Assembly: GCA_038228545.1 (NCBI GenBank)
Contig: JBBRPE010000003.1
Location: 64,442-128,441, forward strand
Length of the DNA stretch: 64,000 bases
Direction: 5' to 3'
From: Minisyncoccia bacterium
GTDB lineage: Bacteria > Patescibacteriota > Minisyncoccia > Phycocordibacterales > Phycocordibacteraceae
Position numbers and translations under genes: made by a program. Below, piece after piece: positions 2,550 through 49,599 of the stretch (position 1 is the stretch's first letter; every line of letters begins with the position of its first letter). Under the pieces are notes generated by a model. It did not search any database. It saw only the letters and a program-made list of their open reading frames with translations, and had not been told where the DNA came from.

Positions 2550-3455
2550 ATGATACCACCGGAAGATACAGGTCTCAAAAACGACTCACGCGAGCGTATT
2601 TCTATTGTGTGCGTCGTGGGGCCAACTGCGTCTGGGAAAACAGCTCGAGGAATAGAGCTCGCACAGGAGCGCAACGGCGAAATTATCTCCGTAGATTCAC
2701 GGCAGGTATACCGCATGCTTAATATCGGCACCGAGAAAATAGCAAAAGAAGAAATGCGTGGAGTCCCTCACCACCTTATAGACATATGTGAGCCTGAAAC
2801 CACCTACAGCGCGGGCGATTTCGTACGAGATGCTGACACTCTCATACAAGAGCTTCATATGCGTGGAAAAACACCAATACTTGTTGGCGGAACACACTTC
2901 TACTTTGATGCACTCCTCTATGGTCTTCCGAGCGATATTCCGCATGATGAGAAACTTCGTGCAGAGCTCGAAGCGTTGTCGAGCGACGAGCTCATGGAGC
3001 GTATACACGCCGCAGACAGCAGACGCGCGAGCCGTCTTGACTCAAACAATCGTCGCCGGCTTATCCGAGCACTGGAGATAATTAGCGAGCACGGCCATGT
3101 CCCCGAGCGAAAGCATGACGAAATGCGCTACGACGTTGAGTGGGTGATTCTCAACCCGGAGCGCGACGAACTTCGTTCCCGTATACATACACGTCTTCAA
3201 TTTGCGCTCAACAACGGTCTGATTGAAGAAGTGAAGAGCGTCCGTGCGCTCGTCGGTGATGAGCGTCTGAATGAACTTGGACTTGAATACAAAGTCATCG
3301 GAGAGTATCTACGCGACGAACGCGACTACGATTCCTTGCTCCCGACACTTTCCTCGCGTCTCTGGCACTATGCCCGCCGTCAGAAAGCGTGGCTCAGAAA
3401 ACTTATGCACGAGAGCCAAATAGCAATGACAGCGAGTGATAAACTATCCTCATGA
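2550..3455 (+). CDS. miaA: tRNA dimethylallyltransferase
   Basis: P-loop GPTASGKT and ISVDSRQVY. Similarity runs the full length. Confidence 0.85.
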   Translation: MIPPEDTGLKNDSRERISIVCVVGPTASGKTARGIELAQERNGEIISVDSRQVYRMLNIGTEKIAKEEMRGVPHHLIDICEPETTYSAGDFVRDADTLIQELHMRGKTPILVGGTHFYFDALLYGLPSDIPHDEKLRAELEALSSDELMERIHAADSRRASRLDSNNRRRLIRALEIISEHGHVPERKHDEMRYDVEWVILNPERDELRSRIHTRLQFALNNGLIEEVKSVRALVGDERLNELGLEYKVIGEYLRDERDYDSLLPTLSSRLWHYARRQKAWLRKLMHESQIAMTASDKLSS

Positions 3456-3952
3456 AGAAATTTGTCGTGATATTTGTACTGGTTTTCTTTTTTATAGCTC
3501 TTCTCGGAGCAATCTTGTTTAAAGTGCTGTCTCCGGGGACACAGCCCAAAAAGCAAGCAACGACTACCTTCCCTACCGCTACGGGAATTTCGTATACGTC
3601 AGTTTCAAACACGCCTGATGCAGTAGCAAAAACATGTGTTAGCTGGTACGTGCAAGCGGAAAACGTGGCACTCGATGACTATGAAAAAGGTATCGAAAGC
3701 TGTTTTACTCCTACCTTTTATAAAAGCTGGGATAGTATTCGCGATGATACAGGCCAGGACCCGGTGCTGTACTCACATACCTACACTCCTAGCTGGTTAA
3801 CGAAGCAAACTGCATCTATAAAAACTCAAACAGACACTGAAAGTACGGTATCTGTCACACTCGGCAACGGCACTACTGCGCTTATGGTAGACGTACAACT
3901 TGAGAAGACGAGTAACGGTTGGCGTATCACAAACGTTACTGAATCGAAGTAG
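3452..3952 (+). CDS. Hypothetical secreted/membrane-anchored protein
   Basis: N-terminal hydrophobic helix followed by a Thr/Ser-rich region. Start overlaps the miaA stop. Confidence 0.5.
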   Translation: MKKFVVIFVLVFFFIALLGAILFKVLSPGTQPKKQATTTFPTATGISYTSVSNTPDAVAKTCVSWYVQAENVALDDYEKGIESCFTPTFYKSWDSIRDDTGQDPVLYSHTYTPSWLTKQTASIKTQTDTESTVSVTLGNGTTALMVDVQLEKTSNGWRITNVTESK

Positions 3953-3995: not shown

Positions 3996-5027
3996 CTATC
4001 TGCCTGATGCAGACCAGTGCGGTGGGTCGTTCGGCAACTGATTATAAAATCCATACTGTCCGGCATGAGCTCTGAGCCACGTGTATGCGCCCGGTCCGAG
4101 TCGTATATCAACAGCAGTTCCTGACGTGTGATTCGAGCCATTGCCTCCAAGCGAGCATGGCACCGCGGCAGTTCTGGTGGAACACACAGCACTGCCATTC
4201 ACCAGACGACACCCGTTGTTATTCCACGCAGCTGTCTGGTCGTCTGGAGATCGATACCCAGACGACACCCGCAAATCTACACCTTCTCTGAGGGCAGCAG
4301 TACGCATAGATACAAAACGCTGAACCGTATCTGCCAAATCTCTATGAGACCCGATGTCAGCAGAACTGGGGAATGGAACGAGCTGTGATTCTGGTATCGC
4401 TGTACAACTACCTCCGCCTCCGCCTGGGCCCGGGCCGCCAGTACCACCTCCAGGACCAGTTAGACTTCCAGCGTCCGTACTACCCACAATTCCGTTTGTG
4501 ATACTCCCAAACAAACCTTGGATACGCTGTGGTGTTGTTTCGCTTATGCACATGTCTTCACCATTGTCAGCAAGAATGCTATTCCATGGACCAAATGTTG
4601 AACCGGAAGCTGTACCGTCTGATGCATTTGGTTTATAGAGTTTTTTCATTATGTAATCGACGATGAGCCATGCGGCAAGCACGATTGCAAGTCCAATCAT
4701 CACATTAATAAACATCCCTCTTCCTTTGCTTCTCGCTTCAGCATTACTGCCGTTAAACATCCAAATAAATCCCGCGTAAACGAGCGCGAGCGTAGCGAAG
4801 ATACAGCCGAGAGAAATCATAAGATTTATGACATTTTGTGTCGTTGCAAGTACACAACCATAGGAAGCGGCCGAGGTATGGCCGGGAACACCATCGCAAT
4901 TACATTCTGTTGGGACTATCGGCCCGAAGAAATTTGCGGTTGCCGCATGGGCTGACACAGGAACTATAAGCACGATGAACGCCAGGGTGAGTCCTGCACT
5001 GAGCTTTGTTAGTGTGCTGTACTTCAT
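3996..5027 (-). CDS. Secreted fusion protein: T4SS-pilin-like (TrbC/VirB2-like) N-domain, Gly-rich linker, C-terminal peptidase M15 (VanY/LAS-type zinc peptidoglycan peptidase)
   Basis: Signal peptide (…VSAHA). Then IVPTECNCDG and two TM helices (LMISLGCIFATLALVYAGFIWMF … INVMIGLAIVLAAWLIVDYIMKK). These match the paralog array at 19.9-22.1 kb. Linker is GPGGGTGGPGPGGGGGS. The C-terminus has SGYRSPDDQ, HTSGTAVDI and DPPHW, which are M15 zinc-ligand motifs. Confidence 0.7.
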   Translation of the reverse strand: MKYSTLTKLSAGLTLAFIVLIVPVSAHAATANFFGPIVPTECNCDGVPGHTSAASYGCVLATTQNVINLMISLGCIFATLALVYAGFIWMFNGSNAEARSKGRGMFINVMIGLAIVLAAWLIVDYIMKKLYKPNASDGTASGSTFGPWNSILADNGEDMCISETTPQRIQGLFGSITNGIVGSTDAGSLTGPGGGTGGPGPGGGGGSCTAIPESQLVPFPSSADIGSHRDLADTVQRFVSMRTAALREGVDLRVSSGYRSPDDQTAAWNNNGCRLVNGSAVCSTRTAAVPCSLGGNGSNHTSGTAVDIRLGPGAYTWLRAHAGQYGFYNQLPNDPPHWSASGR

Positions 5028-5029
5028 TA

Positions 5030-5563
5030 TTACGGGAGCTTCACCGCTCCTGGACAGAAACTAAGTCCGACCGGGTCGGTGCCATAGGTATCACTCAATC
5101 CCGGACCTGCTGAAACATAAGTGTCGAGCGCACAAAGCACTGGATTAGATAGTTTGAGTGTGGTGCGCAATGCGTCTTCTGCAGCTATTCTCGTCGCTCC
5201 GAGAGGTTCCGCAAGAAGTGTAACAAGCACGCGTGCCTTACCTCCATTTTGGGCCGGAGGTACATAAGTTATAAGAAAAGTAGAATACTCTGAGCCTGCA
5301 ACACGATACCCGGACACCGGATCTGCCCATGCGGGCTGGTCTATTTTTGTAAAATCAGGAACTGCTACTTTTGACCCATCGCTCAGAACGATAGTGAGCT
5401 GGTTACCAACGGGTATTACACTGCTCCCAAGACCTCCAAAGGGAGAGGTCGTTGCTGTACCGGATGTGACGGGTGAATACGTTTTTTTAATCAGCCAGTA
5501 CATTCCGAATACGGCGAATACCACGAGAAGTACTGCCAACCCTATAGCCAGCGGCTTATTCAT
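5030..5563 (-). CDS. Hypothetical membrane-anchored protein
   Basis: One N-terminal TM helix. Lies between the two pilin-hydrolase fusion genes and is probably in the same operon. Confidence 0.5.
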   Translation of the reverse strand: MNKPLAIGLAVLLVVFAVFGMYWLIKKTYSPVTSGTATTSPFGGLGSSVIPVGNQLTIVLSDGSKVAVPDFTKIDQPAWADPVSGYRVAGSEYSTFLITYVPPAQNGGKARVLVTLLAEPLGATRIAAEDALRTTLKLSNPVLCALDTYVSAGPGLSDTYGTDPVGLSFCPGAVKLP

Positions 5564-5587
5564 AAAAAAATTGTATCATGCATGATT

Positions 5588-6631
5588 TTAGCGAGCCTGA
5601 CATCTTGGGTCGGACGACCTTGCTCCTGGAACTGCGCAACGAGTCGCCGAGCATTGCCATGCAGAAAGATTCTGTGTGTACAGACTACAGGCCACCTGTG
5701 TGTTAGTTTGACCATTTTGGGCGGCCGAAACACAGTCCTGATAGAGACGTTCCTTACCGGGTACAACCGAGGAGTCACATCCACCGAGTCGTTGACCCGC
5801 ATAGTGGAGCGCGTTTCCCTCGCATCTTTGTGTAAACGCAGTCGTACAGGCTATACCGTTCACTCTAAGGGGCGAGGTTGTGAGGTTAATCTGCCAGAGC
5901 CCAACAGAGTAGCTCCGCCCGTTACCACGATCCAATTTATCCGAGGTGGAAAGGATGGCGACTTGTCCGCCCGCACTCTCGAGATTGCAAGTTCTTGACG
6001 CTGCTTCTCCAAGAGCTGCGAAGCAAGTACTGGATAGACTCTGCACACTACACGCTCCGCTTGCAGGAAGAGTACAACTCCCTCCACCCCCCACTCCACC
6101 AAAACCACCTCCTCCACTTCCAGCGTTCGTGCCTCCCACGACGCCATTTGCAATACTTCCGAATAGTCCTGGGATTACTGTCGTCTCCCTCGGTTGTATA
6201 CACCAGGAGCCTGCCGCTGCAGGAGAGAGAATTTTATTCCACGGACCATAGGAACTTTCGTTGTAGAGCGTCTTCATGATGAAGTCTACGAACAGCCAGG
6301 CAGCAAGAACGATGAACATACCAATAACGACATTCAGTAACATACTCTTCGCCTTACTGCGCATTTCGGGATTTGTCGGATTGAGCATCATACTTGCGCC
6401 TGCGTAGGCTGCGACAAGAACGAATGCAATAACCCCAATGGAAACGGCCGCATTCATAAGGTTCTGAATGAGTTGCAGTACACCTCCGTAATCACACGGA
6501 CATGCGGTGCACTCCGTCGGAACTATTGAAAAGGTTGGGTCAAGAAGCGATAAATTTGCGGCATACACGGGAAGAGCCGCGCTTACAAAAAGAGTAAGCG
6601 AGAGAGAAGTAACCAGGAGAGCCCTACGCAT
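5588..6631 (-). CDS. Secreted fusion protein: T4SS-pilin-like N-domain, Gly-rich linker, C-terminal lytic transglycosylase-like (GH23/SLT-like) domain
   Basis: Start set at MRRALLVTSLSLTLFVSAALPVYA (signal peptide). IVPTECTACPCDYG plus two TM helices are paralogous to 3996..5027. Linker is GSGGGGFGGVGGGGS. The C-terminus has ES…(30 aa)…GLWQIN and HYAG, which resemble the SLT catalytic E-S and GLMQ/AYNAG motifs. Confidence 0.6.
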   Translation of the reverse strand: MRRALLVTSLSLTLFVSAALPVYAANLSLLDPTFSIVPTECTACPCDYGGVLQLIQNLMNAAVSIGVIAFVLVAAYAGASMMLNPTNPEMRSKAKSMLLNVVIGMFIVLAAWLFVDFIMKTLYNESSYGPWNKILSPAAAGSWCIQPRETTVIPGLFGSIANGVVGGTNAGSGGGGFGGVGGGGSCTLPASGACSVQSLSSTCFAALGEAASRTCNLESAGGQVAILSTSDKLDRGNGRSYSVGLWQINLTTSPLRVNGIACTTAFTQRCEGNALHYAGQRLGGCDSSVVPGKERLYQDCVSAAQNGQTNTQVACSLYTQNLSAWQCSATRCAVPGARSSDPRCQAR

Positions 6632-6814
6632 ACTTGTATTGTAGCCTCTCAGAAGGCCCTGGCACTGCTTTGTTCCCACCTTATAAATCTGCTAAGGTAG
6701 CCAAGAGGAAGCTCAAATTCGCTTCGCTCGGGCCATATGCGTTGCTTGCACGTATATGAACCCTTCGTTCGGCGGATTACACTGAATCCTGATTCAATGT
6801 ACTCACCTCACTCA

Positions 6815-6885
6815 GGGTCCATAGTTTAGTGGTAGAACATCGGTCTCCAAAACCGATAGTGTAGGTTCGATTCCTACTGGGCCCG
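6815..6885 (+). tRNA. tRNA-Trp (anticodon CCA)
   Basis: Cloverleaf readable by hand. Acceptor gggtcca/tgggccc with discriminator g. Anticodon loop ctCCAaa. T-arm ggttcgattcc. CCA is not encoded. Confidence 0.8.
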
Positions 6886-6932
6886 CAAATAGAAAAGCGC
6901 CATTCGGCGCCTTTTCTATTTGCGGGCCCAAG
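6886..6932 (+). terminator. Perfect 20-bp-stem hairpin downstream of tRNA-Trp
   Basis: gggcccgcaaatagaaaagcgcc-attc-ggcgccttttctatttgcgggccc. The stem re-uses the tRNA 3' end. Confidence 0.5.
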
Positions 6933-7006: not shown

Positions 7007-7684
7007 TCAGCCACCATTCTTTTTCGGACGTCCGACTGTCCGGAGAGTTTGCTCGAGACCGTGTCTCTTCACCATGGTATCAAGCCACACGTCGTTCCCA
7101 AACGGAATACTCTTTCTTTCAGACTGTTCGAGTGCTTCTTCTTCGCTTGGGGTCTGCGGCTCGTCGAGCCATGCAAGATAGTCAGGGGGAGAGGATACGG
7201 GCCAGGCTGAGAGGAGTTTCTGTTGTTGTGCAGTACCACTTTCTCTTCGCCAGGCACTTCCCCACCTCCACTGTGGTGCACTCTTTACCAAGTTTGCTTT
7301 CTTAGCGTTTCGCTCAACGTATCTAACCAGAGTTAGAAAATACTTGTCCTCTCCACAGAGAAAGGACTTGTAGCGTCCCTGATACAGATGACCTTCGCCG
7401 ACCGTTCCTTTTGCGATATGCCATCGGCGGGTATGAGTGTTGGTGACCCAAGACATGAATTTCGAGAGATCGCCGTCTTCTTTCGGGTACAGGACAAGAT
7501 GCCAGTGATTGGGCATGAGGCAATACGCGAGTATGCGCATATCGAAGGTTTCTGCTGCTTCTTCCAGGATGGTCTCGAACATGCGATAGTCGTCAGGAGT
7601 GTCGAAAATCTGAGCACGGACATTGGCGCGATTAAGGACGTGATATACATGTTTTCCCACGTCGACACGTTCGATGCGTGGCAT
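7007..7684 (-). CDS. Y1 (HUH) transposase, IS200-like / REP-associated tyrosine transposase-like
   Basis: HuH motif in YCLMPNHWHLVL and conserved HVYHVLNRANVRAQIF. At 225 aa it is longer than classic IS200 TnpA, so it may be RAYT-like. Confidence 0.7.
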   Translation of the reverse strand: MPRIERVDVGKHVYHVLNRANVRAQIFDTPDDYRMFETILEEAAETFDMRILAYCLMPNHWHLVLYPKEDGDLSKFMSWVTNTHTRRWHIAKGTVGEGHLYQGRYKSFLCGEDKYFLTLVRYVERNAKKANLVKSAPQWRWGSAWRRESGTAQQQKLLSAWPVSSPPDYLAWLDEPQTPSEEEALEQSERKSIPFGNDVWLDTMVKRHGLEQTLRTVGRPKKNGG

Positions 7685-8534: not shown

Positions 8535-8993
8535 TTAGCAGTTTGTCGCTACGCCGAGCGCAGCTGCCTTCTGAGTAGATGTACTCGTGCTATCAACGCA
8601 CCAATAGAGGGCGGTATTAGTTTTAAGCTGGGCTGACATAGCCCACGCGGTGGCAGAACTGTTACAGGTAACTGCAGCAGAACCAGAGCTCGCGGCGCCG
8701 TTTTTCATACTGACAATACTCGGCACGTTATTTATAGGAGTCGTTGCTTGGCATACGTCAGTTGCAGCAGATCCTTTGTTGTACGAATTACCATTAGCAT
8801 CATAAAAGAGCTCCGCCTGTGCGAGCGCACTGTGGAGTGAGGCCTTTATGGCGGCGTCAGCACCTTTTTGACGTGCTGTACTGAGCGAGGCTAATACGAC
8901 TGAAGAAAGTATGCCAATAATGGCAATGACAACGAGGAGTTCTATGAGAGTGAAGCCTTTTGGGTGGGAGAGAGTATCGTGGTTCATTATCAA
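8535..8993 (-). CDS. Type IV pilin (prepilin-type N-terminal cleavage/methylation domain)
   Basis: G|FTLIELLVVIAIIGILSSVVLASL, the classic class III signal. C-terminal Cys pair. Confidence 0.85.
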   Translation of the reverse strand: MIMNHDTLSHPKGFTLIELLVVIAIIGILSSVVLASLSTARQKGADAAIKASLHSALAQAELFYDANGNSYNKGSAATDVCQATTPINNVPSIVSMKNGAASSGSAAVTCNSSATAWAMSAQLKTNTALYWCVDSTSTSTQKAAALGVATNC

Positions 8994-19932: not shown

Positions 19933-20208
19933 TTAATGCGCTGGAGTGAGAGGAACACCGAGCGTTGACGAGACGGTTGCAGTAAGGAGTGCAATGATTG
20001 CGCGTGCACCGAAGATAATAACAAGGCCAATGATTCCCCATATGATGTGCTGTTGACCGGTCTTTCTTTTTTCATCATTTCCGGCGCCTTGTATGAATTC
20101 AACAACGCCCCATACAAATACCACAAAAGCGGCAAGCACCATAAGCTCAATGAGAGGGTTCAGTATTGCGTTCTCGACTTTAACGAGAAAGGCATCGAAG
20201 GCAGGCAT
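19933..20208 (-). CDS. T4SS-pilin-like (TrbC/VirB2-like) protein, N-terminally truncated paralog
   Basis: LMVLAAFVVFVWGVVEFIQGAGNDEKRKTGQQHIIWGIIGLVIIFGA matches the family core. No signal peptide. Separated from the upstream paralog by a terminator at 20226-20250. Confidence 0.5.
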   Translation of the reverse strand: MPAFDAFLVKVENAILNPLIELMVLAAFVVFVWGVVEFIQGAGNDEKRKTGQQHIIWGIIGLVIIFGARAIIALLTATVSSTLGVPLTPAH

Positions 20209-20273: not shown

Positions 20274-20633
20274 CTAGCGGCCCTGTGTAGTGTAGGGAGC
20301 GGTTGGATACGTCGGTGTGGATGGGTTGAGGTTGAAGGTACCAATAAGAATGTGTACCAAGCCCCAAACCGAGACCATGACAAAGAAGCCGATGAGACCC
20401 CAGAGCATGAGTTGCTTGCCGCTTTCACGCTTCTCTTCATCATGTCCGCCCTGAATGAAGTACTGGAAGATACCCCAGATGAAGACGATGAATGCGAGTG
20501 CGAAAACGATAGGCACCGCGACGTTGTTGATAAGGTCGATAACTATTCTGCTCGCATCGTTGACGCTGTTCACCTGCGCGAAGGCAAGGAACGGGAGAGC
20601 AAAGGCAGCACCGATATAGCCGATTTTCTTCAT
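20274..20633 (-). CDS. T4SS-pilin-like (TrbC/VirB2-like) protein
   Basis: Signal peptide (…LAFA|Q). Two TM helices flank the GGHDEEKRESGKQLMLWG motif. Confidence 0.65.
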   Translation of the reverse strand: MKKIGYIGAAFALPFLAFAQVNSVNDASRIVIDLINNVAVPIVFALAFIVFIWGIFQYFIQGGHDEEKRESGKQLMLWGLIGFFVMVSVWGLVHILIGTFNLNPSTPTYPTAPYTTQGR

Positions 20634-20736: not shown

Positions 20737-21267
20737 TTACGGAGGCGTTGGATTGGAGTTAATGATGGTTGTACCTGAATTACTTGGTGCTGGTGTTTGT
20801 GTCGCACCACTCGATGGGAGTGTTGTCTGTGTCTGGGCTGCAGGAGCGTTCGACTGATTAAACACCGGGTACTGCGGACGAACGGCAGAACTGAGGCCGA
20901 GCGTGCCGTTTATGACATTAATCAAGCCCCATACGGAAAGCATGATAACGAACCCGATAAGTCCCCACAGGAGAAGTTGCTGGCCTTCCTTACGCTTCTC
21001 TTCATTACTGCCACCGAGGATGAAGTAACGGTAGATACCGACGATGAAGACAACGAATGCAAGAGCAAAAACAATAGGAACAACAATACTATCGATGAAC
21101 GAGATGCCGCAATTGAGAAACGTGCCGAGATTCGTAATGTCGCAACGTCCGGTGCCGCCGGGTGCAAATGGGTCCGTTGGTGCGGCGTAGGCCAGCTGTG
21201 TGAATCCGAGAAATGCCACTGAAACGAGTGCAAACAGGCGAGCGATAAGAATACGGAAAGATGTCAT
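20737..21267 (-). CDS. T4SS-pilin-like (TrbC/VirB2-like) protein
   Basis: Same core (VVPIVFALAFVVFIVGIYRYFILGGSNEEKRKEGQQLLLWGLIGFVIM). C-terminal Thr/Pro/Ser-rich tail. Start taken at MTSFRILIARL. Confidence 0.6.
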   Translation of the reverse strand: MTSFRILIARLFALVSVAFLGFTQLAYAAPTDPFAPGGTGRCDITNLGTFLNCGISFIDSIVVPIVFALAFVVFIVGIYRYFILGGSNEEKRKEGQQLLLWGLIGFVIMLSVWGLINVINGTLGLSSAVRPQYPVFNQSNAPAAQTQTTLPSSGATQTPAPSNSGTTIINSNPTPP

Positions 21268-21309
21268 ATATATGAAGCGTACCAAGGACGGATAATCGAG
21301 CAAGCTAAG

Positions 21310-21645
21310 TTATGCACTGGTGCCAAGAAGAGTCGTGACGAGGATTTTAATTATTCCCCACACACTGAAGATAATGACCATCCCAACCATGGCCCATATG
21401 ATGAAACCGCGGCCTTGCTCCCGATTCTCTGCTCCGCCCGTAAAGAAATACCGAACGATGCCGATAACCAAGAATAGGAACGCGAGTGAATACAAGAGAG
21501 GAATAACACCCGTGTCAACGAGCGGGACTATCTTCTGGTCTACGAGCTGCTGAAACGTCAGGCCGGCTGTGCTTGTGGTGGCAAAGACCGGAAGTGCTGT
21601 CGTAAGGAGTGCGCCAAGCCCAATAAGCCTCTGTACAATTTTCAT
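21310..21645 (-). CDS. T4SS-pilin-like (TrbC/VirB2-like) protein
   Basis: Signal peptide plus core (LAFLFLVIGIVRYFFTGGAENREQGRGFIIWAMVGMVIIF). Confidence 0.65.
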   Translation of the reverse strand: MKIVQRLIGLGALLTTALPVFATTSTAGLTFQQLVDQKIVPLVDTGVIPLLYSLAFLFLVIGIVRYFFTGGAENREQGRGFIIWAMVGMVIIFSVWGIIKILVTTLLGTSA

Positions 21646-22103
21646 GAGCCAAGACCGGCAACGGTCGCAGTAATAACTACTTCAATGGCTTTCGCCCCGA
21701 GCAAAATAAGTCCACCAATGAGCGTCCATATGAGAGCGCTACGTGCTTTCGATATTTCTTCCGGATTACCTCGGGCAAGAACGAATAGGAATCCGACGTA
21801 TACGAGCATGACAACGAGAAGTACAGAACCGAGCTCAACGACCGCACCAAGTATTGCATCTATGAGTTTCGGTAGACTATCAATATTGCCAAGTGGGTTC
21901 TGCAGCACTGCGGTGCTGCCATCAGAAGCCGGGTTACCTGTTACTGGTGTTGCGGGATTCCCTGTGACGGGAGTGGCAGGATTACCAGTTACCGGAGTCG
22001 GTTCAGCATGAGCAATTGGAGCTGAAATACAGAAAACGGCGAATGCTAGTGTAGCGAGACTTACTACGACAATGTGTGATGAGGAAGTGCGAAGAGTACT
22101 CAT
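21642..22103 (-). CDS. T4SS-pilin-like (TrbC/VirB2-like) protein with tandem PVTGNPAT repeats
   Basis: Signal peptide. EPTPVTGNPATPVTGNPATPVTGNPA occurs three times. Core LLVVMLVYVGFLFVLARGNPEEISKARSALIWTLIGGLILL. Start overlaps the upstream gene (ATGA). Confidence 0.65.
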   Translation of the reverse strand: MSTLRTSSSHIVVVSLATLAFAVFCISAPIAHAEPTPVTGNPATPVTGNPATPVTGNPASDGSTAVLQNPLGNIDSLPKLIDAILGAVVELGSVLLVVMLVYVGFLFVLARGNPEEISKARSALIWTLIGGLILLGAKAIEVVITATVAGLGS

Positions 22104-27859: not shown

Positions 27860-28899
27860 TGTGGAGACATTATACCTTGAAAAAGCTACGTGTGGTAGCT
27901 TCATAGTAGGAACGCAACCCTGCGTTCCTAACCTATGAAAGGTTCGTTTTGCCTTTGAACCAAGCACCCAATTGATGGGGAGCTTGGTTCATTGAAAAAA
28001 CGTTCGCCCCCCACTTCACCCTGTTGAAGTGGTGTTGTTTTACCGGCTCTTCATTGACCCAACAGGGAAGTTAGGTTATATTTCTCATGTCGCCCAACTG
28101 GGGCGATTTCCATTTGGAGGTGAGCTGTGAGCCACACTGACGATACTCTGACTCTGACACGGCCTCCGAAGGCCTCGTTCTTCCAACACCAGGATCCCCC
28201 TCGCTCCAACTTCGTGAGCGTCGCGGGAGGTAGCAATGGCAAGCCGCCTCTGGGCTCTGACGGCAGAAACAACATGCCTGCCGACGATGCCGGCGACCCG
28301 ACGGCCAAGCGTACCGGCACGAACGGCTAGAACATCATGGGCCAAGAAACTCATGAAGAACTTCCGGCGATCCGGCACACGCCAGTGAGCCACGGCGACC
28401 TTGGTCAGGACGACTTTGACGACGACTACCCGGACGGCAGCAAACCGCTCCCGCCGAGCACCGTCTACAACTAACCGAACAGGCGAGCGTAACAGGGAAG
28501 CCGACCCCCTTTAGAGGGTCATAGGGAGGACACCCCCATGTCCAAACCAAAAATCCTGTATGCGCGCCGTGGTGGAGGGGACAGCGTTTCCTCCACCACA
28601 CCAACTTGCTCTTTATGTTCTAAACCTTCGCCACTAGGGCGAACTACACATTCAAGGTCTACCTACACGGGTGGGCCTTTATTCGTTATGTGAAGAGATG
28701 AGAATGTAATGTGCGCACTTCCCTGTCTCGGCTAAAAAAGTTATCCACAGGTGCTTGATTTTAGTAAAAGTTATGTTGGAACCGATTTTCCGACCTATGT
28801 TCAGCTGAAAGATTTGGATTTAAAGTTTCTCGTAATTCGAAAAATATTTGAGTGGATAGAGCGAGAGAACCCCTACTTCCCTGCCTCACTACGGAAAAC

Positions 28900-28927
28900 T
28901 TGACACTAAAATAACGGGTGCTATAGT
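28900..28927 (+). promoter_or_regulatory. Near-consensus sigma70 promoter
   Basis: TTGACA, 16 nt, TGcTATAGT. Followed by a leader hairpin plus T-tract (gagggctcgccctcttttttc) and then the 49-aa ORF. Confidence 0.45.
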
Positions 28928-29027
28928 GCTTTCACTGACTGGTGCGGTAGTTCGTTATTGAGGGCTCGCCCTCTTTTTTCGTTCCCGATGAACTAGACAG
29001 CTGAACCTCGCAAAGGAGATTGCCCAT

Positions 29028-29177
29028 GAAGACCTCTTCGACCCGCTCGATGTTGAAACCCATCCCCCTGGCCGCCGGCCTGGCCCTGTCCGCCGCCGCC
29101 ATCGGCGCCGGCATCATGCTGGCCAAGCGCAGCAACAAGTCCAACCCGGCCGGCGCCGTCCCCAAGGCGGCCTGATC
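29028..29177 (+). CDS. Small hydrophobic peptide (49 aa, single TM), extremely GC-rich
   Basis: RBS AAGGAG 7 nt upstream. Sequence MKTSSTRSMLKPIPLAAGLALSAAAIGAGIMLAKRSNKSNPAGAVPKAA. About 68% GC with GC3 near-saturated, versus about 55% for the genome. Followed by a palindromic terminator (ggcccgac…gtcgggcc). Confidence 0.4.
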
Positions 29178-29377
29178 GGACAAAGGCCCGACACGCCCCC
29201 CCCCGACTAGTCGGGCCTCCAGCCCCCATCGCATGTAAAGTGCGGTGGGAGTTTTGCTTTATTGCTCAATTCCCCACTATTTGCTATATTCCCTGAGTTA
29301 AGGCGAGAGCAGTACGGAGGCGTTAACCCTGAAAGTCGCAAGGCTTCAGCACCCTTCAGAACGTCCGTCTCTTATAT

Positions 29378-47573: not shown

Positions 47574-48443
47574 ATGGAACGAACCATTGTCTTCTACCAC
47601 GCAAACTGCCCAGATGGCTTCGGAGGCGCGTATTCTGCCTGGAAGAAGTTTGGTGACACCGCTCAATACTGCCCGCTTTCGTACGGTAAACCCATTCCGG
47701 AGAACCTCGATGGCGCACACCTCTTTTTCATAGATTTCTGCTACGACCAAGAAGTAATGGACAGTATCAAGGCTGTTGCAGGCTCACTCACCGTGCTCGA
47801 CCATCACGAGGGTGTTGAGGAAGTGACACGCAGCATGCCGGAATTTGTGTACGATGTTAATCGTTCCGGTGCTTCTATAGCCTGGGCATATTTCCATCCC
47901 GACGTACCGCTTCCCACTCTCCTTACTCTTATCGAAGACGACGACCTCTTCCGCTTCAAACTTCCGGACACGAAAGCGATGTTGGCATATATTGCCGTAA
48001 AGCCATTCACGTTTGAATTCTGGGATGAACTCGCGCAAGTCCTCGACGATCCGGAGCAAAAAGAAAAAATGCTAGAAAAAGTTCGCGCCTACCGCGAGTA
48101 CTTTGATTTACTCGTCGAGCAAAGTGTGGAGCGTGCCAAACTTCTGCAGTTTGAGGATTACCAGATACTTGCCGGTGTTACGCATCCCATGAAGCCAATG
48201 GTATCGGCTCTTGGAAATGCACTTGCGAAGAAGCAGGGACCGTTCGCATTCGTTCTCCAAGTACGCGAAGAAGGTATTGCGGTCTCGGTACGTGGCGACG
48301 GCTCCATTGATTTGGCTGCACTCACGCAAAAATACGGAGGTAATGGTCATCACGACTCCGCTGCGTTCTTCGTGCCATGGGGCGCTCCCCTTCCATGGAC
48401 ACCCGTACCAAAAGAAGACGAACATGAAAGTCCTCGCAATTGA
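47574..48443 (+). CDS. DHH-family phosphoesterase (NrnA-like nanoRNase / pAp phosphatase)
   Basis: DHH motif LDHHEG. DHHA1 motif GGNGHHDSAAF. Confidence 0.7.
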   Translation: MERTIVFYHANCPDGFGGAYSAWKKFGDTAQYCPLSYGKPIPENLDGAHLFFIDFCYDQEVMDSIKAVAGSLTVLDHHEGVEEVTRSMPEFVYDVNRSGASIAWAYFHPDVPLPTLLTLIEDDDLFRFKLPDTKAMLAYIAVKPFTFEFWDELAQVLDDPEQKEKMLEKVRAYREYFDLLVEQSVERAKLLQFEDYQILAGVTHPMKPMVSALGNALAKKQGPFAFVLQVREEGIAVSVRGDGSIDLAALTQKYGGNGHHDSAAFFVPWGAPLPWTPVPKEDEHESPRN

Positions 48444-49599
48444 GACATCGTGCGATGAAACTGCAGTAGCTATTCTCGAAGCCACCGGCGACGAGTCGTC
48501 GGCAACCTTTACCATTCTCGGTAACGCACTTATTTCACAGATAGACATACACCGCGAATACGGCGGGGTATTCCCCGCCGTCGCAAAACGCGAGCACGCA
48601 AAAAATCTCGTACCGCTTCTTGAGAATGCCCTCGCAGAAGCAGAGCTTCTTGTTGAGACTACTCAAGCAATCCCGACTGAACTGCACGATGAGCTCGCCG
48701 TACTCCTTGAGCGCGAGCCGGAATTATCGAGCGCTTTTCTTGCTCGCCTCGCACAAATAGAACGCCCAGCACTAGACGCGATAGCCGTGACGGCAGGCCC
48801 GGGACTCGAGCCAGCACTCTGGGTTGGCATCAACTTTGCGAAAGCGCTCGCACGTATATGGAATCTTCCGCTTGTTGCGGTAAACCACATGGAAGGTCAT
48901 GCGCTTTCTGCACTTGCCGTACAAGAAGGTAATCAGCTCACCATACACGCAACGAAACTACCACTCTTAGCGCTTCTCATTTCCGGCGGACATACGGAGA
49001 TTCTTCTGATGAAAGAGTGGCTTTCGTATGAAATGATCGGCCAGACCAAAGACGACGCAGTTGGTGAGGCATTTGATAAAGTAGCCCGCATGATGGGTCT
49101 GCCCTATCCGGGTGGTCCTGAGATAGACCGACTCGCAGCACTCGACCGTGAAGATTTTTCTACCGCACCCTTCAAGCTCCCACGTCCCATGCTGCATGAC
49201 GCGAGTTGTGATTTTTCATTCAGTGGCCTTAAGACTGCAGTGCTCTATATCATCAAAGACCTGGGCGAACTAACCGGTACACAGAAGGAACAGATGGCTC
49301 GAGAATTCGAGGACGCGGTCACAGAAGTACTCTGGGCCAAGACCGCTCGCGCGCTCGAAGAAACCGGAGCCAAAACTCTCGTGATAGGTGGTGGAGTCTC
49401 AGCGAATCGCCACATTCAGGAAACCTTCGCGCAAAATATCGAAAAGGATTTTGGAGACGTCACACTGCACATCCCGTCCCGAGAGCTTTCAACAGATAAC
49501 GCGATAATGATTGGCATCGCCGGCTATTACCGCGCCCTACAGAAAGACTTTGCCGACCCTGCCACCTTACGTGCTAATGGCAATCAAAGTCTCGCATAG
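48424..49599 (+). CDS. tsaD: tRNA N6-adenosine threonylcarbamoyltransferase
   Basis: Start set at MKVLAIETSCDETAVAI. Kae1/TsaD metal-binding region …NHMEGHAL…. Confidence 0.85.
   Translation: MKVLAIETSCDETAVAILEATGDESSATFTILGNALISQIDIHREYGGVFPAVAKREHAKNLVPLLENALAEAELLVETTQAIPTELHDELAVLLEREPELSSAFLARLAQIERPALDAIAVTAGPGLEPALWVGINFAKALARIWNLPLVAVNHMEGHALSALAVQEGNQLTIHATKLPLLALLISGGHTEILLMKEWLSYEMIGQTKDDAVGEAFDKVARMMGLPYPGGPEIDRLAALDREDFSTAPFKLPRPMLHDASCDFSFSGLKTAVLYIIKDLGELTGTQKEQMAREFEDAVTEVLWAKTARALEETGAKTLVIGGGVSANRHIQETFAQNIEKDFGDVTLHIPSRELSTDNAIMIGIAGYYRALQKDFADPATLRANGNQSLA

Follow-up and report, generated by a model that had tools for sequence, protein, structure and literature searches.

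VirB2-like pilin modules fused to putative cell-wall hydrolase domains in a conserved three-gene cassette of Patescibacteria

A 64,000-nucleotide stretch from an ultrasmall Minisyncoccia bacterium (Patescibacteriota; assembly GCA_038228545.1, contig JBBRPE010000003.1, positions 64,442 to 128,441 of the forward strand; hereafter the window, with positions counted from its first letter) encodes a cassette of three adjacent genes, the first and third of which join a VirB2-like pilin hairpin to a putatively muralytic enzyme domain. Distant relatives have this cassette inside a PrgI-VirB4 locus or inside an array of small pilin genes. We lean towards the reading that it supplies the type IV secretion system (T4SS) or pilus of Patescibacteria with a muralytic module, which would open the producer's own cell wall in a VirB1-like role.

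The cassette lies on the minus strand, and its two fusion products are called proteins A and B here (coordinates in the window; protein positions in amino acids, aa):

5588..6631, minus strand: gene 1, encoding protein A (347 aa), with a signal peptide, a VirB2-like N-module, a Gly-rich linker and a lysozyme-like domain
6560..6631, minus strand: signal peptide of protein A, aa 1-24 (...PVYA, followed by AN), predicted from the sequence, with a helix at 2-24 in the AlphaFold2 (AF2) model
6194..6559, minus strand: N-module of protein A, aa 25-146, with a Cys motif, two helices, a basic loop and a WC segment
6056..6193, minus strand: linker of protein A, aa 147-192, containing GSGGGGFGGVGGGGS, with a predicted local distance difference test score (pLDDT) below 50 at aa 159-181
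5591..6055, minus strand: lysozyme-like, Cys-rich domain of protein A, aa 193-347
5030..5563, minus strand: middle gene (177 aa), with a transmembrane (TM) helix, a disordered linker and an alpha/beta ectodomain
3996..5027, minus strand: gene 3, encoding protein B (343 aa), with a signal peptide, a VirB2-like N-module, a linker and an M15B/VanY peptidase
4542-4943, minus strand: N-module of protein B, aa 29-162, preceded by a signal peptide, aa 1-28
4407-4541, minus strand: Gly/Pro linker of protein B, aa 163-207
3999-4406, minus strand: M15B/VanY peptidase domain of protein B, aa 208-343

The stop codon of gene 1 is separated from the start of the middle gene by 24 nucleotides (nt), and that of the middle gene from the start of gene 3 by 2 nt; from this arrangement, we read the three genes as an operon. 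An earlier sequence-only reading of this DNA had described the two fusion open reading frames (ORFs), and both are present as it described them. The possibility that they are pseudogenes was checked and discarded, with intact orthologues in more than 50 genomes. Translation from the ATG at 6631 yields the 347-aa protein A, identical to a database protein (P0001); an alternative start for gene 1 is the GTG at 6679. One promoter-like element lies next to the ATG:

6638..6665, minus strand: hexamers GTGCCA and TACAAT with a 16-nt spacer, just 5' of the gene 1 ATG

These hexamers lend weak support to the 6631 start. Scans for promoters and terminators around the cassette gave numbers of sites that were not above chance.

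The N-terminal part of each fusion had been assigned to T4SS pilins, and profile searches confirm the assignment. PF18895 (T4SS_pilin; gathering cutoff 26.6 bits) is the model for calling VirB2-like pilins in Patescibacteria, where pilin arrays are common (PMC12102498). Against this model, protein A scored 45.1 bits (E=1.1e-11, aa 53-118, nt 6278-6475) and protein B 39.4 bits (E=6.6e-10, aa 62-126). Both proteins also gave weaker, sub-threshold matches to TrbC/VirB2 (PF04956) and, among the NCBIfam models, to a 'pilin-like conjugal transfer protein' family of mycoplasma integrative and conjugative elements. A hidden Markov model (HMM) built for the N-module scored protein A at 183 bits.

The same module is found in an array of small VirB2-like pilin paralogs at 19.9-22.1 kb of the window:

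19933-20208, minus strand: small pilin paralog
20274-20633, minus strand: small pilin paralog
20737-21303, minus strand: small pilin paralog
21310-21645, minus strand: small pilin paralog
21642-22103, minus strand: small pilin paralog

All five exceed the PF18895 cutoff (36.9-46.4 bits) and are matched by the N-module HMM. The seven hairpins (those of A, B and the five paralogs) align nearly gap-free, with the loop Glu and a Gly of the second TM helix invariant, and the hairpins of A and B are 50% identical. The proposed homology between the N-module and the small pilins is thus upheld by the profile scores and by the alignment. The array is presumed to supply a filament or a pool of partners for the fusion proteins. 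Its largest member (21642-22103, minus strand) carries three tandem NPATPVTG repeats in the mature N-terminal region, and the 20737-21303 paralog has a C-terminal tail rich in Pro, Thr and Ser; for each of these extensions, on pilins that are minimal in other respects, a location outside the membrane is predicted.

Protein A illustrates the layout of the N-module. An IVPTEC(41)xxCxC motif leads into two helices of about 35 residues (48-83 and 88-122 in the AF2 model, mean pLDDT 81), which are joined by an NPEMRSKAK loop and followed by a YGPWN...WC(144)IQ segment. The signal peptides, the IVPTEC motif, the MRSKA and ARSKG turns, the FGPWN...C segment and the Gly-rich linkers were all found where the sequence-only reading had placed them, and its overall architecture (a signal peptide, then a VirB2-like hairpin, a Gly linker and a muralytic domain) stands. 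The signal peptide of each fusion appears to be of the AXA type, and this pattern places the probable cleavage site of protein A after aa 24. Because of the positive-inside rule, the basic loop is expected to be cytoplasmic and the mature N-terminus and the enzyme to be outside.

Two Cys residues flank the hairpin. C41 and C144 are invariant in the A family; in the B family, C160 is invariant and C42 nearly so. The Cys before helix 1 and the Cys after helix 2 may form a disulfide that staples the ends of the hairpin together. By analogy, such staples (C41/C144 in A, C42/C160 in B) might be a disulfide counterpart of the head-to-tail cyclisation of the Agrobacterium VirB2 and RP4 TrbC pilins. 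In size, the fusions depart from VirB2-type pilins, which have about 70-150 aa and are essentially a hairpin: A and B have 347 and 343 aa, including enzyme domains of about 150 residues. Furthermore, gene 1 and gene 3 N-modules from one genome are more alike (identity 0.53) than N-modules from different genomes (0.46), which suggests co-evolution or a common partner.

Beyond its linker, protein A has a lysozyme fold, in which a helix ends in the catalytic Glu and the beta-hairpin motif G-L-x-Q comes next. In the family alignment, E218-S219, G244 and Q247 (GLWQIN), W325 and C332 are invariant. In structural and profile comparisons, C-type lysozyme came out best (E=0.017 to PDB, sub-threshold), and a single-sequence PDB search with the same domain gave no match. 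Where hen lysozyme has its second catalytic carboxylate, Asp52, the gene 1 family has Ser. A VirB1-like lytic transglycosylase had been proposed here; the lysozyme-type domain with its E-S and GLWQI motifs holds, while membership in GH23/SLT does not, there being no match of the domain to Pfam SLT (PF01464) at E<=10. Against PF18896 (SLT_3), the domain reaches E=0.09 and 13.7 bits (cutoff 27 bits), and its homologues reach 16.7-28.2 bits, with P0005 alone above the cutoff. The 'HYAG' that had been offered as a further motif falls where the family alignment is variable and gapped and has to be abandoned; motif III of SLT enzymes reads AYNxG. Sequence and model together point to a muralytic domain of the lysozyme superfamily, either a hydrolase or a lytic transglycosylase.

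The C-terminal domain of protein B had been called an M15 zinc peptidase, and PF02557 (VanY) matches it well above the cutoff (E=3.3e-10, 40.3 bits against 25, aa 233-334). Searched with a profile of 49 family members, solved structures gave E=6.6e-12 for the VanY, YodJ and LdcB carboxypeptidases and 4e-7 for the Ply500 endolysin. R259, S298xH300xxG303xA305xD307 and D334xxH337 are invariant in these 49 sequences, and for this reason the zinc site, the catalytic acid and the substrate-binding Arg look intact. The domain shares SxHxxGxAxD, DxxH and the conserved Arg with M15B enzymes (VanY, LdcB/YodJ), but it is fused to a pilin-like anchor and its general base is an Asp (DxxH), not a Glu (ExxH). 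DxxH is typical of M15C endopeptidases, such as those of phage endolysins, and ExxH of VanX/VanY.

The small membrane-anchored protein that had been noted between the two fusions is real and conserved. It has a TM helix at aa 3-26, a disordered linker and an alpha/beta ectodomain of about 125 aa, with C144 and C170 invariant, and its family, whose gene lies between the two fusion genes, is found in 42 loci. The lysozyme fusion is never without it, and a function as partner or regulator of the lysozyme-fusion complex is probable. A role as a type-specific immunity protein was considered and rejected: its identity is 0.34 within and 0.33 between the peptidase types of gene 3, with no co-variation.

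The connection of the fusions with a T4SS comes from distant relatives, whose loci were reached by a search aimed at the lysozyme domain and by inspection of atypical homologues. In L082, the order is PrgI, VirB4 (P-loop_TraG/AAA_10/DUF87), two unknown genes, the pilin-lysozyme fusion, the middle gene and two fusions of pilin to a peptidase-like domain (c3), followed by YidC, DnaA and DnaN; this is an origin-proximal T4SS locus as described for Patescibacteria (PMC12102498). In L057/L058, a protein with an immunoglobulin-like domain, a pilin module and a lysozyme domain (P0062; E=3.7e-24 against protein A) is encoded two genes 3' of VirB4, beside yidC/jag; a metagenome scan with P0062 as the sole query found nothing. 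L087 reads GyrA, SBP_bac_8, a pilin, the pilin-lysozyme fusion, the middle gene, six small pilins and Band_7. The equivalent region of the window reads GyrA, SBP_bac_8, the five small pilins and a Band_7-like gene, and the SBP_bac_8 proteins of the two are homologous. Given this shared frame and these homologous proteins, the lysozyme fusion and its partner in L087 lie inside the counterpart of the 19.9-22.1 kb array. The link of the fusions with a T4SS, which had been drawn from the window, is thus borne out by the PrgI-VirB4 locus of L082 and the pilin array of L087.

As an observation of its own, L082 also contains a gene for a YkuD-type L,D-transpeptidase within the PrgI-VirB4 locus (2630-3667, minus strand), a further wall-remodelling enzyme linked to the system.

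A mechanism can be proposed on this basis. The pilin-like hairpin would bring both enzymes into the membrane pool and to the assembly site of the small pilins, where a Gly-rich tether of about 45 residues would hold an extracytoplasmic hydrolase domain on each hairpin. The tethered glycosidase and peptidase would then cut the producer's own wall locally, and the opening would let the T4SS channel or the pilus through, with the middle protein acting alongside the lysozyme-fusion complex as a partner or regulator.

Three points weigh against this proposal. Firstly, co-location with VirB4 or other T4SS genes is seen in L082 and L057/L058, and location within a pilin array in L087, but not in the window or its close relatives: no VirB4, PrgI or other T4SS gene lies within 10 kb of the cassette in the window and about 50 relatives, and a search of the window for homologues of the L082 T4SS proteins (VirB4, PrgI and others) found none. 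Secondly, the usual activity of VanY/LdcB-type M15B enzymes is that of a carboxypeptidase, which trims stem peptides instead of opening the wall. Finally, Paceibacteria are the sole class with conventional VirB1 homologues associated with virB4 (PMC12102498), and because of these homologues the VirB1 role may already be filled.

Both fusion architectures are widespread in metagenome-assembled genomes of Paceibacteria/Parcubacteria, many of which carry generic taxonomic labels. A scan of species-representative genomes yielded 53 loci, on which the N-module HMM was then run. In 41 of them, two N-module genes lie about 550 bp apart, and the lysozyme-like fusion is the first gene every time. Gene 3 is far more diverse in its C-terminal domain, which belongs to at least six families: VanY in 11 loci, three Cys/His-rich families without annotation in 13, 11 and 11, and several singletons, two of which show traces of NlpC/P60 or endolysin-like domains. 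The domain types are interspersed over the phylogeny, and the gene 3 N-modules do not cluster by type (identity 0.50 within and 0.49 between C-types), which indicates that the cargo has been exchanged repeatedly in situ. Gene 3 clusters 1-3 had no match in Pfam and nothing usable in PHROGs, and hhalign revealed no relation of these clusters to the VanY cluster or to each other. A PDB profile search with cluster 3 gave no match; cluster 1 gave a sub-threshold match (E=0.47) to the zinc site of the Hedgehog N-domain (Hedgehog/LAS). On their H/D motifs alone, clusters 1-3 are hypothesised to be peptidases.

There are also two variant cassettes. Beside MiaA, L060 (774-4020) has three fusions in a row, pilin with SLT (PF01464), pilin with the cluster-2 domain and pilin with VanY, and no middle-protein gene. 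It shows that the cassette slot can take a canonical GH23 domain and an extra fusion; the canonical SLT fusion implies that the glycosidase role is kept though the fold family changes. In the distant relative L061 (14815-18000), an inovirus-like module (Zot PF05707 with RepSA/REP_ORF2-G2P) lies about 4 kb from a divergent cassette, which includes an upstream M23 peptidase gene and a DsbA-like thioredoxin gene. The DsbA-like gene fits a need for disulfides in Cys-rich ectodomains.

The in situ replacement of the gene 3 C-domain among at least six families, with a constant N-module and variable C-domains as in polymorphic effectors, invites the explanation that the fusions are enzyme-bearing minor or tip pilins, which take the hydrolases to the wall of a host and match the host's peptidoglycan chemistry through an interchangeable peptidase. 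Delivery on a filament had already been put forward in the sequence-only reading. The true homology of the N-modules to the small pilins favours it, as do the hairpin termini predicted to lie outside and a flexible linker long enough to keep the cargo off the filament surface. Moreover, Patescibacteria are believed to rely on contact with a host and on T4SS pilins (PMC10633639, PMC12857230). However, N-modules of different genomes share about 50% identity, against a mean of 25% for pilins within the arrays of Patescibacteria (Quinonero-Coronel et al. 2025, PMC12102498), and this difference suits a role in the membrane or in assembly no less well than surface display. The small pilins have neither the FGPWN...C segment nor the Cys pair; the same filament packing is therefore not guaranteed, and a cargo of about 150 residues per subunit would be sterically hard to fit. 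Nor is there the co-varying adjacent immunity gene of polymorphic toxins: the middle protein does not follow the peptidase type, and gene 3 is directly followed by MiaA, on the other strand. On balance, delivery to a host wall by minor or tip pilins is unlikely, if worth entertaining.

The boldest form of the idea would make the fusions subunits of a monoderm VirB2-type pilus, whose lysozyme and swappable peptidase breach the host wall at contact, with the peptidase as a determinant of host range. We regard it as quite improbable. Should the fusions indeed be built into the filament, the result would be an enzyme-armed pilus of the conjugative type, for which there is no precedent.

The conserved surroundings of the cassette raise a different explanation. 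In the window and about 50 related genomes, the order is IF-2, an aminotransferase, ClpB, the cassette, MiaA and a peroxiredoxin, then ParB, RelA and TopA. Such strict vertical synteny, together with the single-copy, highly conserved state of the cassette and a window devoid of T4SS genes, would suit housekeeping autolysins that have exapted a VirB2-like hairpin as a plain two-pass anchor and serve the growth or maturation of the wall or the separation of daughter cells, with no T4SS involved. The nearest solved M15B relatives, the stem-peptide carboxypeptidases VanY, YodJ and LdcB, would also suit such a role. A plain anchor, however, does not account for the embedding of the cassette in a VirB4 locus or pilin array in L082, L057/L058 and L087, nor for an N-module that is conserved well past its hydrophobic helices (the NPE.RS.AK loop, WLxVDFxMK and FGPWN...C), and repeated swaps of the peptidase among unrelated families would be unexpected of a fixed housekeeping step. 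Autolysins of this kind are rather unlikely.

That the cassette is a domesticated phage lysis module or mobile-element cargo (two endolysins, one of them membrane-tethered, and a small holin-like protein) is hardly credible: the order of lysozyme, small TM protein and peptidase is superficially like that of lysis modules and the M15 domain weakly resembles the tape-measure/endolysin peptidase families of PHROGs (E=1.5e-6), but no relatives were found among IMG/VR viral contigs or PLSDB plasmids, no phage genes flank the cassette, its chromosomal position is fixed over about 50 species-level genomes, and the IS200-like transposase nearby (7007-7684) is window-specific and outside the conserved locus.

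This transposase is of the IS200/IS605 Y1 type (PF01797, E=1.5e-18) and, with a tRNA-Trp gene (6815-6886), lies directly upstream of the cassette. Both are missing from the same position in the syntenic loci L001 and L002 and are therefore probably a lineage-specific insertion. Between ClpB and the cassette, a gene at 8535-8993 (minus strand) encodes a type IV pilin or pseudopilin-like protein (N_methyl motif, E=4e-9), which belongs to a type IV pilus/competence pilus system, distinct from the VirB2-like genes. On the other side, between gene 3 and MiaA, a gene at 3452-3952 (plus strand) encodes a small protein that has a TM helix at its N-terminus and matches DUF3828 weakly; as it has a homologue in just 5 related loci, it is probably outside the cassette. 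Elsewhere in the window, a 1.4-kb stretch between two well-supported genes (27968-29377) holds no credible long ORF and no Rfam match at E<=1, and a short ORF within it (about 29027-29175, plus strand) would encode a peptide of about 49 aa with one hydrophobic helix. At 48211-49599 (plus strand), a TsaD/Kae1 ORF of 462 aa, whose TsaD domain begins at about residue 179, overlaps the ORF before it (47574-48443), which may reflect a fusion at the N-terminus or a wrongly set start.

The reading of the cassette as a wall-opening module of a T4SS or pilus would fill a gap. VirB4 is found in 2,417 of 3,035 Patescibacteria assemblies, and most Patescibacteria with VirB2 have no recognisable VirB1, so that it has been considered that pilus biogenesis might not need VirB1 (PMC12102498). 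In the saccharibacterium Southlakia epibionticum, epibiotic growth requires the T4SS genes and a PF18895 pilin array (Wang et al. 2023, PMC10633639), and this T4SS with its VirB2-like array is the first found to be essential for the growth of its carrier (PMC12857230). The cassette is a concrete candidate for the missing wall-opening activity, built physically onto the pilin fold, and its natural series of domain swaps could report whose wall is cut, the producer's or the host's. In the library searched, no paper describing a pilin-hydrolase fusion was found. This agrees with the earlier impression that the architecture is not an established annotated family, an impression that needs qualifying, as automated pipelines already label both domains; the JGI name of one homologue is 'D-alanyl-D-alanine carboxypeptidase/Type IV secretion system pilin'.

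The nearest parallel in Patescibacteria also comes from S. epibionticum, where SEML1_0006 (two lysozyme-like domains and a Cys proteinase domain) and SEML1_0007 (M15B-like) are encoded beside virB4 and are essential by transposon sequencing (PMC10633639, supplement). They represent the same pair of activities, lysozyme-like and M15B-like, tied to a Patescibacterial T4SS and PF18895 arrays. The two proteins are large and apparently unfused, and their description in the supplement, which reports no PF18895, sets them apart from the fusions.

With the PF18895 pilins, the fusions share the signal peptide, the two long hydrophobic helices and the short basic loop with its conserved Glu. They are about three times longer, and add the FGPWN...C segment, the Cys pair flanking the hairpin, the linker of about 45 residues and the enzyme. 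The gene 1 domain differs from C-type (GH22) lysozymes in the Ser at the D52 position, as in the single-carboxylate GH23/goose-type enzymes.

Wall opening for a T4SS is performed by VirB1 in diderms and by membrane-anchored PrgK, TraG and CwlT in monoderms. Like VirB1, PrgK (pCF10), TraG (pIP501), CwlT (ICEBs1) and TcpG (pCW3), the cassette would provide an extracytoplasmic, N-terminally membrane-anchored glycosidase and peptidase. VirB1, PrgK, TraG, CwlT and TcpG are dedicated to a T4SS, and so too would be the cassette, which lies away from any T4SS locus in the lineage of the window. Its activities are split over two polypeptides, and a VirB2-like hairpin takes the place of the single TM helix. 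The glycosidase is Cys-rich and C-type-lysozyme-like/SLT_3, not SLT/GH23. In place of CHAP, NlpC/P60 or LytM, the peptidase belongs to M15B or to one of several families without annotation. The VirB2-like pilin fold, the lysozyme-like domain, the M15B peptidase and the T4SS wall hydrolases are thus all of known kinds; what is new is the fusion of wall-cutting enzymes to a pilin fold, the fixed three-gene cassette, the in situ exchange of its second enzyme and its link, in relatives, to VirB4 and pilin loci.

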